DNA of 63,993 bases, filler included, from Gonapodya sp. JEL0774 (taxonomy: Eukaryota): the NCBI GenBank assembly GCA_027604505.1. It is 3 parts of 3 records of this genome, joined end to end, with 100 filler letters (N's around TTAATTAATTAA, not from the genome) between each part and the next. Parts side by side here need not be neighbours in the genome. Positions count along the whole stretch, not along the records: positions 53,967 to 63,993 come from JADIIX010000396.1; 2 more parts are not named here. One strand, 5' to 3'. Shown here one piece after another: positions 5,182-63,993 of this stretch (position 1 is its first letter; the number at the start of each line of letters is the position of its first letter). The position numbers and the translations under genes were made by a program. The notes beneath the pieces are model-generated. The model was not told the DNA's origin, did not search any database, and saw only the letters and a program-made list of their open reading frames with translations.

Positions 5182-5493
5182 GGTTGTGGTTTCGTTGGAC
5201 TGTGGTTCTGAGTACGGTTATGTTTGCAGCTCTTGTCTTACAGTTGACGCAATTATTCGCCACCCCTCGTACCGAGCAATGTAAAATGTGACTCTGGCGT
5301 ATATCACTAGCTCAACTCATGTAACTATGAACATTATGGAACCTTGCATAATTGTTGTGTCAACATACGTGGGCCAAATGGTCGGTCTGCCCTTGAGGCC
5401 GAGTCGGAGAGAGATTTTTCAAGCTTAATTTAGCTCGTGTTTATGCCACGTGAGCGGGGTAGCAGTGAGATATGACAAATCGAGATCGATTAA

Positions 5494-5634
5494 ATCTTAC
5501 CGTGACACTTTGTTGCAACTGTAATTCAAACATGCGACTGCTGTCGAGTAATCTACACAGTCAGCGTGAGTTACATGTGTATAGGGCACGCCCTGGACGA
5601 ATGCTGAAAGATGAGCCTGCCTCATGTCTATCTT
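5494..5634 (+). repeat. ~140-bp direct repeat, copy 1 (partner 7679-7820)
   Basis: Shares atctt-ccgtgaca...gagttacatgtgtat...ccctggacgaatgctgaaaga-gagcctgcctcatgtctatctt with 7679-7820. Confidence 0.92.
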
Positions 5635-5764
5635 CAGTGCCGTGTTCAACCTCTCCTAGTGTATCTAAATTATACCCCGAAAACGCGAAAGTAAACGCCA
5701 AAAGTCGCATATTGCTGGTCTTTGAACTAACGTGATCAATCGACCGTTTGAAGCACCGGTTTCA

Positions 5765-7678: not shown

Positions 7679-7820
7679 ATCTTGCCGTGACAATTTGTTC
7701 CAACTGCAATTCAAACATGGTGACTACTGTCGAATAATTTATGCACTCAGCTTGAGTTACATGTGTATCAAGCATGCCCTGGACGAATGCTGAAAGACGA
7801 GCCTGCCTCATGTCTATCTT
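7679..7820 (+). repeat. ~140-bp direct repeat, copy 2 (partner 5494-5634)
   Basis: See copy 1. Confidence 0.92.
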
Positions 7821-8728
7821 TAGATGTAATCTGACCGCGTCTATCTCCGCAGAGATCATCGAGCCTGGGAACAAGAACAGACAAGCAAGCGGACGACGAC
7901 GATAAGAGTAAATGGTGGAACAAAAAGAAGTGGGAAATTTGTGCGTATCGCGGTGACATTTTATTTGGCGAAGAAGATAGACGAACAAGAACACCATGAA
8001 GGATGAGCCGGACTGAAATGCTCTGACAGGGCCTCCACAAGGAACTCTGGCACGAGTGGATACCACGCACGCGGAGAATTCGGAGCGACGGAAGTGAGTG
8101 AGAAACGCGGACAGGAAAACGACAGAGCAGGAAAAAGAGCGGAGGAATTTACACCAGAGATTCGAGGGAAAATAAGAGGTGGGTAGAACGCGGGGTGGGG
8201 AAAGGGGAAAAGGGGGCCAGTTGGGGAAAGGTGAATGGGCTCTTGGTTGGGAGGAGGCAAGGGGGCCAGCAGAGAGGATTGGTGGCTGAGAATTCTCGCT
8301 ATTGCGACTCGAGGAGGGAAGAGAGAAGCAGAAAAAAGAAGGGGGTTGGAGTTGGGGAGATGTTGTACACGGGTGTGTCCGAGTTCCAGGTGGAGGAGGG
8401 AAGGTGCAGAGGAGAAGAGCGGGAGTCCTTATTGAAATTCTTAACAGGAAAGAGAGAAGAAGAAAAGAAAGACGGGGAGCCGGAATTCGTGAGACGACAA
8501 GTTGGAGTGAGTGGGTGACGGAAGTTGCCGGTGGGACTGGGAGAATTGGCGGAAGATCAAGAGCGGGACAACAGGGAATGCGCACAGACACGCTGCAGCA
8601 GAGCAGACAGGCGCAGTGACTGCGCACGCTCACTCATCTGCCGGTGTCTCCGCCACCACGCAACACCGACTCTCACACACAACACTCCCACACCCAGGAG
8701 CGCGCCAGTGCACTCCACCCCCCTTGCA

Positions 8729-53966: not shown

Positions 53967-54636
53967 TCAACGTCTGATTTTGAGCGACACTGCGCAGGGA
54001 TGGGATTGGGAGCAGTTGGATAGTTGGCGTTGATTGGAAACAATACACTGGAGTGTTTTGTTTCAGGGGGAGTGTGAAGTCTTGGATGATACCATTGGTG
54101 ACACAATAATTTGTGTACACTGGATTTGGACTCCGGAGATGATTTGGGGAAGTGGTTGGATGAGTCATCACTGTGGCCTGGTGTGGCACAGCGGGTCAAA
54201 GTACATATAAACAGCCGATTTTCCCATGTAGTGTGTGTTGTGTGAGAAAAGACAAGTTTGGAGTTCCAACACAGATTGACATACAAGCCTTTTCCCACAA
54301 TCTTTACATTCCTGAGAACAACCAAACTTGACACAGATGAGGACGTCCACTGAACTTGACAGGTTATGAGCCCAGAGCACTGAAGAGTGCTCTATCATAG
54401 GGTTATGGCCCGATCTGGCTGCCTTTCGTCGCACGCTCGTCGCACGTCGCACTTCCCTGAGGAGGAGATGGGATCTACTTCCTCTTTTTTTGAGTATAAG
54501 TTGTACAAATATGAATATGATGGTTGCATCCATAGGTTTCACCATTGATGTTGTGTTGAGCGGAACAACGAAGTTCCACTCCCTCCCTCCCAATCTCTCT
54601 CAATCCCACTCAACACACAATCAATTCGGCGCGTTC

Positions 54637-54672
54637 CGTCGCAAAGCGACAAAAACGGGTCGCTTTGCGACG
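54637..54672. repeat. Perfect 14-bp inverted repeat with an 8-bp asymmetric spacer (loxP/FRT-like geometry)
   Basis: CGTCGCAAAGCGAC-AAAAACGG-GTCGCTTTGCGACG. The repeat is certain; its function is inferred. Confidence 0.9.
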
Positions 54673-54899
54673 AAAGAGAAAGCGGATTTTTGGCAGAGGT
54701 TAGTCGCACGCCTTGTCGACGGAAACCAATTTGCTCGTCATCCCACACATCTCCGACCCTCCAGACCACGAATTTCTCGTGATCGCGTCTACGAGCGGCA
54801 CGTTTCGTGTGCAGCGCTGACCCTCCGTCTCCCTCAATCACGTGTTCGCGACGCATCATTTTGCGAGTCTGACAGCTCGCAAATCGCCAGTCTCACCGC

Positions 54900-55720
54900 T
54901 TTCATGGGTATCACGGATTGTGCTTCCCTGCAATAACCTCAAGGCGAGTTCGGGGCTGGGGGGAGAGTGGTGGGTGGACCTGGAGGGGAGTAAGACGGGG
55001 AATCCATCGGGACAAACCGGAGTCCGCGCTGGGTCGGGAGCGGCGATGGGCGCCGAGCTCGGTGTGTGCGAGGCACTGCAAAACTGAGGCAAGTGTTGGT
55101 TGTCAGGGGTACGGACTGCGTGGAAGCCATGGGTTGCAGACCCATTCGGTATACCGACAAGGTGAAGATGCTTGCGGTTGAGCGCACACTCGCCTTTTCG
55201 ACCTCGCAAAGGACCAGAAACAATGAAGTGAAATGCGTAGGCAAGTCTCTTGTGAGGCGAGTGTAGGGGGCTGGAAGTTTCATGGAGGATCCATCATTCT
55301 AACTTCTCGCAATTGTGCTCAGTATTTCGAGGACAGTGGCGCAGGTAGCACGGTGGTGACCCCTGGCATGAGAGATGCAGAAGCAAACAAGCTGTACGGA
55401 TCACAAAACGTGCGGTGCGAAGTCTGGGTGTGGAAGTTTAGTCACCCGGGTTGGAACCGCAACGTTTATCCTGGCGGAAAAGACACAATCCCCCGCGGCC
55501 CCGCCTCCTCAGAATCAGCAATGAGGGTCCTGCTAGCTCCTCCACACCCACCCCACTCTGGCTCCATCTCAAGCGTGACCTGGATGTTGACTCGACTTGT
55601 CCTACCCACCCCGGTTTGTAAATGATACAGCGTAACAGCAGCTCATGGAAAGGAATGGGGACAGGAACGGAAGCTGTGATGGGAGATGGGCCATCAGAAT
55701 TTTCATCTGCGACCTGGACC
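54900..55720 (+). pseudogene. Possible degenerate tyrosine-recombinase relic
   Basis: Fragments in different frames: GEWWVDLEGSKTGNPS (compare TWDATKKTGNPAYS in the intact YR) and TLAFSTSQRTRNNEV (Box-I-like). No clear HxxR found. Confidence 0.3.
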
Positions 55721-57856: not shown

Positions 57857-59582
57857 ATGTCGTCCAAGAGATCCGCGCCCACGACACAAAAGATCGCTAA
57901 GAGCAAGCTAGAGAAACGGAAAGCGGCAGTGCTGGATGTCGACAGCGGCGGGAGTGTTCTGGAAGTGGTGGCGAGGATTCCACAGGATCTTGGAATGGTC
58001 GACTTCCGGCGGCAGCAGCTTGGGGCACAGTTTGGATATGACAATCCGAGTCGGATCCTCCCAATGACTCGTACCCTGGAGATGTTGCCGGGGGCCAAAC
58101 GGGTGCTGCCAGACGTGAACAACAAGGAGTTCAAGGATGGAGGAGGAGCACCATTGACCCGGTTCCCCGAATTGCTCGGCATAGGCGAAAACCAGATGTC
58201 GCTTATCTCCAAGCCGGGAGAGTTCAAGTCTCGGGAAGCTCTGGTAACGCTGGCCGACTCGTTGGAGACGCTTTTGCAGGGATCGAGCAACGTTCTCACG
58301 GATTCGGAGGCTGCTCGCCGAGTTATTCAGGATCTCCGGTACGACAATAGACTCAAATCTAAGCGGAAACAAGTGCTCTTATCAATGTTCTCCTTCTTAG
58401 CACCACCATTTCGAAAGGGAATGCGAGCACCGTCGCCCCGAGTCCCCCCACCGACGTTACATCTTCGCATGGTACCCATTTGCGCAGCTTTCTGGCGGAT
58501 TCTCAACATCTGCTGGCAGGTAGCTCCAATGGCCAGCTGGTAGTTCTTTCCCCTCCTACTCCCTCACCAGCACCTCGCTGGGGTAATGCCTGTTCACAGT
58601 ATGATCAATTGGTGCCTCCGATACAAATCCCAATTGAGAGCACCAGAAGCACTAGGCAATCTATGGGGGCAAGCACTTGGAACCTGACGAGCCCATGGGG
58701 CAGTGGAGACTTTCGAGTGGAAGGTGTCGCAATCTGCATACTCCGATGCCAGTCTCCACACCTTCTCCAACGCGGCATCTGCTTTCTTCTTCTTTTAATC
58801 GACCAGTCGACTCCCTGTGCTTTCACCCCCCGTCGTCACCCACTTCCCTGGGTCGCTATCATAGTCGTGGAAACGATGACGTTGACTTGGGATCTCAACT
58901 TCCACGCAGATTTCTCTCCGATGCACAAATACAGCACGGCCATCAAGCTGCTAATCTGCTTCACTCTATTACTTCACCCGATCACACCACTACCTTTGAT
59001 GTCGTCACACTGGCGGACTCTGTAGTATCTTCCCCACCGGTACCACAGTTGCAAGTCAAACCGGTGGCAACAGCCGGCTCCTCTGTTTCAATTGCGGCTA
59101 GAGCGGCACCTGCATCAGCTGGTGCACCCCGATCAGGGACTGAACTGGCGACACCAAAAATAAAGCTATACGTTCGGAAGGCCGACCTGCGCCGAGGGGA
59201 GCAGTACGCAGGTGCTGGTGGCAAGAGCGACTTTGTAACGTGGAAATGGGACGTCCGGAAACTCCAAGCTCAGTGGGAACGGGGTGAAGGGCTGACGGCA
59301 CCGGGTTTTGTGCTCATGTATCCGCCTCGCGTTCTTCATGCTGCACGTCGGGCCCAAAGGTGCAAGGAGCTGGATATTTGTGCGGCTCATGTTGACTACT
59401 TGAAGGAGTTGAACGTTCAATGCACTTCATGGGTCAAGAATCTGACGAAGTACGGGAAGCTGTACGAGGGTCTGAAACTGTGCGGATTTGATACGCTGAT
59501 CTTCCAAGAGAAATTCGGCTCAAAGTTTAATGAAGCCTTGGAGAAGGTGCAGGAGCATTTGGGCAGAATGAACAATCAGTGA
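57857..59582 (+). CDS. Hypothetical protein (probably spliced), basic N-terminus; C-terminus weakly resembles GCR1_C-like DNA-binding domains
   Basis: ORFs 57857..58543 and 58677..59582 in tandem on the + strand; NLS-like KIAKSKLEKRK; WDVRKLQAQWERGEGL...WVKNLTKYGKLY...FQEKFG. Confidence 0.5.
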
Positions 59583-59806: not shown

Positions 59807-62355
59807 TCAAATTCCGTATCCACGGGTGGTAAGTGCCTGCCGAGCCCTCTTCGCAGCTGTCTCTGGAATGAAAGCCGCTTGACCACCAAAGTCCGGGTCC
59901 ACAGAGTCCCATGAATACACATACGCCGCAGGGTCAAATCCATACATACGAACTGCGGCAGTTCGGAGGTCGCCAGCATCCTTGATGTACAGATAGAAAT
60001 TGGTGGTCCTACAAACCAGCATATAAATGAAGTGACAAAACGAAGGAGATTTTTGGTAACGGGTAGAGGAGGTATTAAGACGGAGAAGCTCAAATAACTC
60101 ACGTACGGTGGCGGCTGAGCTTGTTCATAATATCGGCAGAGGTAAAGTTCGCAACTCCTTCCATTCGAGCCCTCTCAGCCAAGACAATGCCTTGTGGGCA
60201 CAATCGAGTCAAGTTGCAATGGCATGACATCAGGAAACAAAAGAAGGCCAGACACACAAGACGCACCAGTTCGGCGGCAGCTGTGCATCCTAAAATTCAC
60301 ACCTGAAACAGACCCCAAAACCTCATCATCGGGGTCCTCTTCTTCGACATCAGCAGCACCGTCGACAGTCAGATCTTCCTCGGTATCCAGATCATCCGGA
60401 AATTGATTGATTCCTTCATCTGGAGTGTACTCCTCTTCGATTTCCAAGCCACCAACAACATCCTCGTCAGCCATTCCTTCAGAGCCTGCTTCTAGTGACA
60501 CCACCTTGACAGTCCGCCTTGTAAAAGGATCGGGGACACCATTCACCACATTTGCCATTTTGACCATGGCATCTTTGAAAACCTTCTTGCTCGAGTGCTT
60601 CTCGGGGTTGAGTTTGTCAGAGGTAGATGCACGAGTATAGGAAGGGAACACCCAAGGCGAGTTGCAGTTTCGGGTAAGGGCCAGAAACTGTGTAAACTGA
60701 GTGGAGGGGCACAGCTCAGGGAGAACACCAAGGTTGAAGTGAACAATCTTCTCGTAGTCTTGATGAGAGAAAAAGAGACCCGGAGCGGTGAGAAGTTTAC
60801 ATGACTTTCAAATAACGATACTTACATCCAACTTCCGTCTTGTCACTCCCAAATCCAATGATGATATAAGAAGGTATGTCAGTTCCAGGGTACGGAGGAC
60901 CAAAGGTGAGGTTGCTTCGCTTGATGGACATGATTGCGCTTGCTCGACTCGCAGTGAAAATAGACAACAAAATCTGTGTATGAAGCCATTGAGTAACCCA
61001 TGCTGCTGAACAAAAGTGGGGAACCAACTCACAATTGTGTAATACATCGAATGCAGAATCGGACGACCAGCACGTTCCCCTTCGACGCAGTATCCATAAA
61101 ACTGAATGATGTCGTGGATGCCAATGATCGGGGCATGTCGTTCCATGCCGCCATCCGCTTGATATTCCTTTGTTAAGCGAGAAATGAGGCCCTTCGAAGG
61201 ATAATTGAGTGCGAAAGTACGCATCATATGTTAGAGCAGATGAGAATCCAGAGTGAACGGGGAATTCAAACAAGAGCAAACCTTCACTTCTGGAGAGTAC
61301 GCCGGGTTGCCTGTTTTCTTAGCTACGAAAAGAGGAACAGTTTTTGACAAAGTTCCACTTGATCAGTTCCCGCACATCAAAACAAACCAACTCACTAGCA
61401 TCCCACGTCTTCGTACCTCCAAGCATTTCGTACAGCCAGGAAACAGCCCAGCGCTCTTGTTTGGCGATAGAGAGGGACAGCCCACGCGTTGGAATACCAG
61501 CGGGGACGTTTCGGGTATCTGTGACGGCAAACGGCAGAAGAGTTACACAGGATACACAATGAAAGAGTGAGGATTAAGACTGGAGCAACACCTACTTGGC
61601 ACCCCATTTGAGAGCTCGGGTGTATTCGTAGGAATGCCAGTGTGCGCTTCGAGATACTTGCGGGAGCAATTGACCGTCATCGACACCAACATCATTGACT
61701 GTACCTCCCTGTCAAATCCTTCATCACCAATGAGCGGAACCTGAACGCCAATAACACCCCGGAGGGCTTCCATGTTGACGAGTCGGTTGCAGTATCTTGG
61801 AAGGGAGAGACACAGTTGATTGATACGTGTCACCATAATACTGAAACCATCCAAAAGTGACTTACATGTACATAGTAGAGGCCGCCTTTTTGCCTGCGAT
61901 AGATTTTGTGACCGCGTGCTGAAGTAGGGTGTCAAAATCATACAGCGGGGACGAGTCAACACCAGCTGTCGAGCTGGAAGCATGAGTCTTTAGAGCAGTA
62001 CGAAGTCTCATCAACAAGTTTCACATGAAATGTCAACGGCCCGCACGAGCAACGAACTCACTGATCCAAACGATTGTCGCAAACCTCGCTTCAAAGCCAG
62101 AGCTTGTCGAACGAGTACAGAGAGGGCGGGTGGACTCTTTTTCCGAGGTGGGGAAACGAGAGATGGGAGATCGCCAGGCTCAGAGCCAAGAACGATCACA
62201 GGAGCTGTCGCCCGAGCAGGGTGGAGCGGATGCAGTTTCTGGAAAACATCCGTCCCGAGCTCAGCGTAGGTTGATACGAGTCCCCGCGGCACGTGGTTTT
62301 GCAGCCGAGAGACTTCCTCCAATGAGGCGGAGAAATCGTAGCCACGAATCGCCAT
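59807..62355 (-). CDS. Tyrosine recombinase (Crypton-like), ~9 exons, catalytic residues intact
   Basis: Spliced: ...KKTGNPAYSPEVK|GLISRL...MYYTI|ILLSIFTASRASAIMSIKRSNL (R, 60944) ...GSDKT (K, ~60840) ...LCPSTQF...WVFP...FRMHSCRRT|G (HxxR, 60274-60285) ...LSRHRT| (H, 60108) TTNFYLYIKDA (Y, 59987). The introns checked are GT-AG and keep the frame. Confidence 0.85.
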
Positions 62356-62570
62356 GGTGTTGCTTGTCGGCGTTTGCGGTGGAGGGGGCTTGATAGGCGG
62401 AGGCAGCGAGGTAGGAACAGGACGAGCAGAGGAGGGAGCTCGATTTGTCGCAGTTTTACGCATCTGTTGAATTTTCGATGCAATATGTGACGTGCGACGA
62501 ATGCTATTACATACGTGGGGGGATGGGAGGGTGGGGAGTGGCTTTGGTCCTGCCGTGGGACCGTGCAACA

Positions 62571-62618
62571 CTCTCCCTCTCTCCCTCTGTCTCTCTCACA
62601 CCTCTCTCTCTCTCTCTC
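62571..62618 (+). repeat. Imperfect (CT)n microsatellite
   Basis: ctctccctctctccctctgtctctctcacacctctctctctctctctc. Confidence 0.85.
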
Positions 62619-62758
62619 ATCGCACGATCGTCGCACATTCGTCGCATACATACATACTAACAAGGATTTTGGACACTTTTGGACAATCGTGGAATCGCTC
62701 TTCCCCCTCGTATTTCTCCTCTGTCACTGCAACACCATTGAAACAAACGCCTGCCATC

Positions 62759-62945
62759 ATGGCAAACAAATTCACACCCAACGATGTACTGAAATGGGTC
62801 ACTGATACGTTGACCAAAACAAAAAAATTGTCCAAGTATTGTGATTGGGCGTACGAATTTGAAAACACTTTGGAATTGACAGGAAATGTGGAACACATCA
62901 AGGGAGTCTGCCAGGCGGACAATCCTTTCATTGATATTATCTTTA
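62759..62945 (+). pseudogene. Short ORF fragment resembling a Ty1/copia Gag N-terminus, interrupted at ~62945
   Basis: LSKYCDWAYEFENTLELTGNVEHIKG resembles the Y-x2-W...L...HI.G pattern; it is followed abruptly by a purine-rich, repeat-bearing segment. Confidence 0.3.
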
Positions 62946-63218
62946 GAGGGAAAGAGGGGAAAACGTCGAAGGGCAGGGGAAACTTTCCCGGAGAGAGCGC
63001 TTTCCCGTGGTGTGGGCTGCGACCGAGTTTCCCGCTGGTTTCCTGCTGAGAATTACCCAAATGTTACCCAAAATTACCCACCAATCGTGGCTTTTTCGAC
63101 TCAAAAACCTTCAAAGAAACGCCGAAACCCAGTGTTTCAAGCAATCTTCCCATGCCGCCGTCACCTCTCCCCAATCGACGTCACCAGCGGACAAAACGGT
63201 CAAACCGAGTCTCTCCTG

Positions 63219-63993
63219 ATGTTGCTGCGGCGTCGGGGGCACTGGATGCAGCAATGAGCAAAGTGATAGGGAAATCAACTCGAGAACTGACTCGTAAACA
63301 CTATCGCTAGTGAGTTATGGGTTTCAACATTGGTGTACGCGGATGGTGTTCACCACGTTATACTGCAACCAGTGACCAGCTTCGATTCCTGCGCTTTCTC
63401 CTCAAAGACCTTGAAAAGGACTACGGAGAGAATGAAAACCTCTGGTCCCTCACTGCGGAAAGGGTGCTGGATAATCCATCAACACTCGCTGAATTCATCG
63501 ATTCCAAAATGCCAAATCACGTTGTGGCCTTCTTGATCTACCTTTGCGACCCAAATTTAGGAGGATGTATGGTGGGTTTCTCCTGAGAAGGTCGAACATT
63601 TTGCATGTTGATCCCAATTCACCACTCGTCAACAGCCTCCCTCTGCCCTCTCAGCAGAGTCTGCAATATCAAAACCGCTAACAAACGTTGGCGGCCGCTT
63701 CTGCGGTGACTGGTGTGATGAGGGCGATGGGAAAGTGGGAGGTAATGCGACATATAGCTCTGTGGTTCGTGAATGTGCGAAGGTGAGCACACTCCTGGAA
63801 ACTTTGCTCTTTGTCCACCCGTGGCTTACTTAGTATATTAAATTGAAAGGGAATTCAGGTCGCTGCGTCTGAGAAGGATTGTGAAGTTCCTATGGTGTTG
63901 GACATAATGCCATAAGTATTTGTATATGGCGCAGACTTGGTCTATGGGACATTTGGGAGTCTTGGTGAAATGGGGTGTGTTTCGTAATCATGA
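63219..63993 (+). pseudogene. Probable second, degenerate tyrosine-recombinase N-terminal region, cut by the window end
   Basis: TRELTRKHYR|...FLRFL; NIKTANKRW; GDWCDEGDGKVGGNATYSSVVRECAK|GIQ, which parallels W...GNPAYSPEVK|GLI; in-frame stops and a frameshift are present. Confidence 0.4.

Follow-up and report, generated by a model that had tools for sequence, protein, structure and literature searches.

The window analysed here, a stretch of 63,993 nucleotides from Gonapodya sp. JEL0774 (GenBank assembly GCA_027604505.1), consists of three contigs joined by N-spacers, and the last of these carries an intact gene, hereafter YR-B, whose predicted product has the catalytic residues of a tyrosine recombinase (YR). 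Gonapodya belongs to the Monoblepharidomycetes, an early-diverging lineage of zoosporic fungi. In the explanation that we favour, and hold to be moderately probable from the sequence, YR-B is an unbroken, likely active YR of an undescribed, lineage-restricted family and likely the integrase/excisionase of a Crypton-type element situated in a recombinase-rich mobile island. The intact gene is real and a YR DNA element is of a known kind; the more unusual part is the context, in which a serine recombinase and a second YR adjoin the gene. With two other recombinase genes adjoining it, YR-B likely belongs to a kind of mobile DNA not yet described. Since Cryptons are polyphyletic, as described in PMC13465315, the term Crypton-type denotes here a mode of action and not membership of a named group.

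Gene structure and splicing of YR-B

YR-B lies on the minus strand between positions 62355 and 59807. Three-frame modelling, splice statistics and YR features define 10 exons (62355-62062, 61987-61866, 61795-61596, 61518-61396, 61322-61282, 61191-61033, 60973-60826, 60758-60267, 60190-60103 and 60008-59807) separated by nine GT-AG introns, and three-frame reading of the spliced sequence gives 622 residues with 0 internal stops. This spliced model, which the earlier note had envisaged, keeps the motif order R-K-HxxR-H-Y intact and is identical, residue for residue over 622 amino acids, to the public model P0001. The latter is also the one protein returned when the largest exon was used as query, and is annotated as a "hypothetical protein" of Gonapodya. 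Describing the gene as cryptic, as was done earlier, is thus correct for its function, which is not annotated, but not for the gene itself, which is.

The introns had been claimed to be of the GT-AG type and to preserve the frame. Indeed, nine of nine are GT-AG, their removal leaves a sequence free of stops, and retention of any single one truncates the frame (9 of 9). They measure 59–94 nt and contain 43.7% GC and 37.5% T, as compared with 51.7% GC and 25.1% T in the exons. Six of the nine donors read GTRAGT, a hexamer absent from the 1869 exon bases; the AAG found at five of the nine acceptors is a caveat on the splice model. Paralog models from the same organism, which are gene predictions themselves, bridge six of the nine splice joints free of gaps (joints 2, 3, 4 and 9 with P0003, joints 6 and 7 with P0004), joint 5 shows a gap of 6 residues against the paralog, and joints 1 and 8 fall outside the paralog alignments. 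An in-frame ATG at 62463, upstream of the assigned start, would yield a protein of 658 residues.

Catalytic residues and tyrosine recombinase identity

The residues R323, K358, H521, R524, H554 and Y563 of YR-B follow the YR order R-K-H-x-x-R-H/W-Y. All motif coordinates claimed in the earlier note were found on the minus strand, and the motifs occupy four exons of the spliced model as it had stated: TASR (residues 320–323) and SDKT (356–359) are encoded by exon 7, HSCR (521–524) by exon 8, SRH (552–554) by exon 9 and FYLY (560–563) by exon 10. The GNP segment said to precede them is present, with GNP at residue 251, and the protein, expected to end about 60 residues past the tyrosine, stops 59 residues after Y563. 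Exon 7 (60826..60973, minus strand) carries the predicted catalytic R323 (codon 60946-60944) and K358 (60841-60839). When the three-member YR-B family was aligned with 12 bacterial YRs by hhalign (P=0.0022 over residues 219–418), these two residues were placed in the columns that hold the catalytic Arg and Lys in the bacterial profile. The C-terminal motifs are in register with the same profile, H521-x-x-R524 (60274..60285, minus strand) aligning to HSARV, with a P of 0.23 when taken alone, which is not significant. H554 (60110-60108) and the predicted nucleophile Y563 (59989-59987), both within 59987..60110 on the minus strand and separated by intron 9, are conserved in P0003, and the distance of 9 between them equals that from Trp to Tyr in the bacterial YRs compared. 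Ahead of HxxR, the profile of Asp and Glu content reveals an acidic low-complexity insertion of about 60 residues (about residues 451–510; 60316..60495, minus strand), and P0003 contains a shorter acidic stretch at the matching position. This insertion likely contributes to the escape of YR-B from HMM searches.

YR-B has no match in Pfam (0 families at E<=10), NCBIfam or the PDB sequences, and PHROG yielded an integrase at E=0.28 only. The earlier note had reported that no GCR1-type domain is fused at the C-terminus, and GCR1_C is without a Pfam match; the domain comparison that it proposed, made here with Pfam, also yielded no DUF3435, DUF3504 or NDC10_II, which fits a new family. HMMER with a small YR profile gave a weak score that was equalled in 5 of 300 shuffles, the same profile having missed a true phage integrase. 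A language-model search places YR-B at 0.97–0.98 to clusters with Phage_integrase (34% and 27% of the members of the top two), ALOG/integrase, NDC10_II and DUF3504; these neighbour clusters are eukaryotic wherever taxa are recorded (recognition 2838). AlphaFold gave low-confidence models with pLDDT 32 from the single sequence and 30 from three sequences. The unreliable three-sequence model, compared with 350,542 PDB chains, has Cre chains at ranks 1 and 2 with E about 1.1, and a fold search with the single-sequence model, of similarly low pLDDT, returned no YR among the matches listed. Taking together the language-model features (0.98), the weak profile match (P=0.002) and the motif spacing, we regard YR-B as very probably a true YR. 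The proposal that it represents a potentially active YR of a Crypton-like or new family is consistent with the six intact catalytic positions, the missing Pfam domains, language-model neighbours that are eukaryotic YRs, and relatives confined to its own organism.

The YR-B family within one genome

Screening of 1.84 billion representative proteins recovered three sequences at E<=0.001, namely P0001 itself, P0003 (47% identity) and P0004 (30%). The latter two come from the same organism, and no relative of YR-B was found elsewhere among these representatives. Word-index searches returned the query proteins only, and no relatives were found in metagenome contigs, viral contigs or phage records. 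The P0003 model keeps H554 and Y563 and is without the R/K exon and HxxR; that of P0004 keeps R323, has its Lys one residue off and ends before HxxR. H521 and R524 of YR-B lie outside both paralog models and thus have no paralog confirmation. Both models are damaged or mispredicted. The C-terminal tail of YR-B is nevertheless conserved in P0003, with 63% identity over 60 residues.

P0004, annotated with 655 residues, has an N-terminal half of the type of the second YR of the island (YR-A, see below) and a C-terminal half of the YR-B type, and is probably a fusion of two adjoining YR genes made by the gene predictor. Since it joins the two types, both YR families are adjacent at a second locus. 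A family that is present in several copies in one genome and absent elsewhere is as expected of a mobile family; the 47% identity between paralogs speaks for an old divergence and not for recent jumps.

Neighbouring genes on the contig

The contig (53967..63993, 10,027 bp) follows an N-spacer and runs to the last base of the window. It contains no recognisable housekeeping gene, whereas on the other two contigs of the window ordinary fungal genes were recognised by eye; its GC content is 50.6%, that of the other contigs 50.2–54.1%.

About 2.4 kb downstream of the YR-B stop lies the gene of a serine recombinase (P0002; 56085..57354, minus strand), the public model of which is partial with 375 residues and matches Pfam Resolvase above the cut-off (E=8.5e-14). 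The catalytic domain comes first, with YARMS at residues 14–18, and the gene contains at least two GT-AG introns. Its nearest language-model clusters are of the Resolvase plus Recombinase kind, mostly viral (0.95), the C-terminal part being of the "Recombinase" type, and no HTH match was found in Pfam. By these sequence features, P0002 is not of the IS607 type.

Head-to-head with YR-B stands the 5' portion of a second YR gene (YR-A; 63152..63993, plus strand), which belongs to a different family and was recognised by its homology to the N-terminal half of P0004. The alignment scores 85, as compared with 34.7+/-4.8 and a maximum of 53 in 100 shuffles, and a second method gave 68 vs. a maximum of 39 in 12 shuffles; the score of 32 against P0001 indicates no homology. 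The N-terminal half of P0004 contains an HxxR/W/Y set of its own and matches annotated plasmid integrases. YR-A has three predicted introns (donors at 63310, 63567 and 63783), its eight best splice models stop after 161–181 residues, and no catalytic domain is seen before the contig ends at 63993. The stop near the contig end (63850-63993, plus strand) may reflect a broken copy or a contig-end error. The pair of YR genes is arranged in tandem at the P0004 locus and head-to-head at the YR-B locus, so that gene order is not conserved.

Between P0002 and YR-B, one or more genes without assigned function (57857..59582, plus strand) are represented by two long frames, 57857-58543 and 58656-59582, with no Pfam match and one weak PHROG match of unknown function (E=0.011). 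The C-terminal part of this region (59142-59579, plus strand; 146 residues) looks globular and has no Pfam match and no viral-contig relative. A 96-residue frame starting with ATG (62759-63049, plus strand), without Pfam or PHROG match, is located upstream of YR-A and could be either a further exon on the 5' side or a small gene in its own right.

A possible third YR remnant at about 54950-55260 (plus strand), suggested by eye from W..KTGNPS and TRNNE stretches, was rejected (scores of 40 vs. a maximum of 58 and 44 vs. a maximum of 47, with 12 shuffles each). The frames scanned in the contig contain no reverse transcriptase, RNase H or gag (Pfam) and no capsid, polymerase, helicase or ATPase (Pfam and PHROG). 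No TnpB/Fanzor was matched by Pfam in the frames adjoining P0002, nor a Holliday-junction nuclease in the neighbouring frames, and the two sub-threshold matches of an Rfam scan were taken as chance.

Two further observations concern the remainder of the window. A sequence of about 820 bp is shared by both ends of the first contig (1-817 and 26150-26989), inverted, 91–96% complementary and starting from the first base of each end; it likely belongs to a repeat family where the assembly breaks. Two direct repeats of about 140 bp (5425-5637 and 7679-7823), 2185 bp apart and 87–90% identical, possibly delimit a small element.

CGTCGCA repeats and a 17-8-17 palindrome

The heptamer CGTCGCA occurs in 8 copies in the YR-B contig vs. 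5 in the other 54 kb of the window. Repeat searches located a cluster of three copies at 54426..54451 (plus strand), a further cluster at 54637-54673, and three copies, one of them imperfect, with an 11-bp period at 62617..62646 (plus strand), upstream of YR-A and after a CT-rich tract. An inverted copy upstream of YR-B in the sense of the gene (62486..62500, minus strand) is complementary at 14 of 15 positions to 54437-54451, 8034 bp away. No copy is present upstream of the serine recombinase P0002. The stretch at 54950-55260 discussed above lies downstream of the left cluster, and the 96-residue frame lies between the right cluster and YR-A. When non-overlapping copies are considered, the clustering reaches 7 copies; 500 shuffles give a maximum of 4, and each of five real slices gives 0. 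This count followed an initial one in which palindromic copies could overlap, with a weaker outcome (9 of 500 shuffles and 1 of 12 real slices). A plain count of the 8-mer was matched in 35 of 200 shuffles and is not significant after multiple testing.

The second cluster is situated inside a palindrome (54634..54675), found by an inverted-repeat search, which consists of 17-bp arms (16 of 17 positions complementary) around an asymmetric 8-bp spacer. The spacer of loxP has 8 bp. This is the longest short-spacer inverted repeat in the window; 0 of 100 contig shuffles reach an arm length of 17 (maximum 15), and its folding z is -3.44. It lies 5.1 kb from YR-B, and each arm contains a palindrome of its own. 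We consider it a candidate recombination or protein-binding site. A search for the palindrome pattern recovered 14 viral loci in IMG/VR contigs (L013-L026), none with sequence in common with the YR-B contig. Seven of the 16 ORFs scanned among the 66 of these loci match replication-initiator families, and in six loci a paired 5-3-5 palindrome lies inside the replication-initiator gene, one locus having an integrase about 620 bp off. Since similar paired palindromes occur inside phage replication-initiator genes, where they are repeats of the replication-origin type, the one at 54634-54675 may be another kind of binding site. In three contigs resembling large DNA viruses (L015, L016 and L018), tandem 5-3-5 palindromes form intergenic arrays with a period of 19–20 bp.

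Nature of the locus

Within the 10-kb contig and among the paralogs compared at the protein level, neither a near-identical copy nor an empty site or terminal repeat was demonstrated for YR-B. The rival explanation to which we give most weight holds that the contig is a fragment of a larger integrative element, able to carry cargo, which encodes all three recombinases with a division of labour between them. The contig does contain three recombinase genes in 10 kb and no recognisable host gene, YR-A and YR-B are adjacent at a second locus as well, one motif recurs upstream of both YRs and at the far left, and the near-inverted 15-bp repeats, 8 kb apart, flank the serine recombinase, the gene(s) at 57857..59582 and YR-B. 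Against these stand the unlike orientation of the YR pair at the two loci, the missing motif copy upstream of the serine recombinase and the fact that no ends are seen in the contig, and we find this explanation rather unlikely. Taken by itself, the proposition that all three recombinases reside in one element is possible, though doubtful. Multi-recombinase elements are familiar in prokaryotes, where XerC/D pairs, RIT, Tn554 and Tn3 resolvases provide examples. It is conceivable, as a tentative reading, that the contig represents one portion of an integrative element of a new eukaryotic kind, outside Dikarya, combining two unrelated YRs and a serine recombinase with the catalytic domain first, all intron-bearing, with a loxP-like crossover site; with similar reserve, such an element could be regarded as a eukaryotic counterpart of the prokaryotic ones and as a second serine-recombinase class of eukaryotic mobile DNA.

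YR-B might instead be a domesticated host gene, that is, a DNA-binding or recombination protein of the YR fold which is now immobile, comparable to Ndc10/Gcr1 derived from CryptonF or to the DUF3504 genes. Its nine introns are compatible with a domesticated gene too, one complete model exists among the three family members, and the paralogs are only 30–47% identical; domestication of Crypton YRs is moreover documented in PMC3212892. The domesticated forms described there are, however, without most catalytic residues, whereas YR-B keeps all six. Moreover, no ortholog from another species appeared among the 1.84 billion representatives and the neighbours are recombinases. Domestication is distinctly unlikely in our estimate, and YR-B is quite likely mobile.

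We judge it improbable that the locus is the remnant of an endogenous DNA virus, a Polinton-like virus or a member of Mycodnaviridae, the integrase and resolvase genes of which have gained introns. The nearest clusters of the serine recombinase are mostly viral, Polinton-like viruses integrate via a YR or rve integrase (PMC10120064), and integrated giant viruses are described in zoosporic fungi (PMC13533422). Yet the scanned frames of the 10-kb contig contain none of the viral genes named above, its GC content is close to that of the other contigs, there is no relative in viral contigs, and all three recombinase genes have introns, while PMC10120064 and PMC13533422 describe viral inserts of this sort as having no or few introns; nor is Gonapodya named in the main text of PMC13533422. 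Finally, an origin of YR-B from a DIRS/Ngaro retrotransposon, to which the ALOG/integrase cluster among its language-model neighbours might point, is hardly tenable and, within the contig, largely refuted, as reverse transcriptase, RNase H and gag are missing from the scanned frames, the DNA 5' of YR-B is a divergent YR gene and the gene has nine introns.

Proposed mechanism and significance

In the Crypton-type element that we favour, four subunits of the spliced YR-B protein would, following established YR chemistry, bring two short DNA sites together. Y563, assisted by R323, K358, H521, R524 and H554, would cleave one strand and be joined to it as a 3'-phosphotyrosine. Strand exchange in two rounds, by way of a Holliday junction, would then release the element in circular form. 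The circle would reinsert at a short matching target and leave no true target-site duplication. The excision and reinsertion model of Cryptons is supported in Chlamydomonas (PMC9977147), and the mechanism has not yet been shown experimentally according to a 2026 review (PMC13565253). More speculatively, the CGTCGCA clusters could be putative binding sites and the 17-8-17 palindrome a putative crossover core, and YR-A and the serine recombinase might either aid the same element, with one enzyme for integration and another for resolving multimers, or belong to elements piled up there; these are the weakest steps of the proposal.

A full-text literature search, Repbase and subscription papers apart, found no description of YR mobile elements of chytrid-like fungi and, among the titles and abstract openings listed, none of a locus like the Gonapodya island. 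The escape of the YR-B family from Pfam indicates that YR elements are undercounted in early-diverging fungi. IS607EU is given in the same review as the only known eukaryotic DNA transposon using a serine recombinase for transposition; a serine recombinase of non-IS607 type travelling with YRs would, if true, be the second eukaryotic case. The combination of a spliced Cre-like enzyme and a candidate 17-8-17 site would make the Crypton mechanism directly testable, and YR-B could supply a new site-specific recombinase.

Comparison with known systems

Among the Cryptons in the broad sense, YR-B is nearest by domain layout to CryptonS as described in PMC3212892, with which it shares an intron-containing eukaryotic YR gene, the full catalytic set, no RT and no GCR1_C, and also a C-terminal tail conserved within the family. 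It differs from CryptonS by the acidic insertion ahead of HxxR, by the lack of a detectable sequence relative outside its organism, and by its neighbours, where a serine recombinase and a second YR take the place of a peptidase or DDE gene. None of the three matches among the 1.84 billion representatives is from an oomycete or a diatom. Cryptons in the broad sense are discrete elements that occur in several copies between direct repeats of 4–6 bp; the further copies seen of YR-B are protein-level paralogs. The termini of CryptonS are TATGG; counting both strands, the contig contains 15 such sites, which by a rough estimate is about the number expected by chance, and one of them lies at 54404 just before a motif cluster. 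No zoosporic fungus is included in Table 1 of PMC3212892.

CryptonF, defined by GCR1_C in PMC3212892 and hosted by fungi and oomycetes, resembles YR-B in the fungal host, the YR and the introns, and its language-model neighbours include an NDC10_II cluster; unlike CryptonF, YR-B has no GCR1_C or NDC10_II match in Pfam and ends 59 residues past the tyrosine. CryptonA/Glomhopper, defined by DUF3504 in PMC13465315, is described there with catalytically intact YRs, often containing introns, in a non-Dikarya fungus, whereas YR-B is without a DUF3504 match. Starship captains, defined by DUF3435 (PMC11162782, PMC10104507), are likewise long fungal YRs that have the RKHR(H)Y residues and whose neighbouring genes could travel along, but YR-B is without a DUF3435 match, and the same sources report Starship YRs to be absent outside Dikarya. 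In a Starship the captain comes first, the cargo follows, and direct and inverted repeats mark the ends; the YR-B contig stops at 53967 and 63993. The missing Pfam domains and the published descriptions would thus set YR-B apart from CryptonF, CryptonA and Starship.

Like the enzyme of IS607EU (PMC13565253; yeast copies in PMC2715888), P0002 is a serine recombinase encoded in the nuclear genome of a eukaryote. Whereas in IS607EU the DNA-binding domain is N-terminal and TnpB/Fanzor2 is adjacent, P0002 starts with its catalytic domain, has no HTH ahead of it and continues with a Recombinase-type region, and the nearby frames are without a TnpB/Fanzor match.

A last comparison concerns Cre/loxP and the Cre-like plasmid YRs. 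YR-B differs from these by an identity of about 17%, a spliced gene and the acidic insertion, and the candidate site differs from loxP in its 17-bp arms, each holding a palindrome of its own. Shared with these systems are the catalytic order, the spacing from Trp or His to Tyr, the bacterial profile match and a palindrome spacer of the same length as in loxP.
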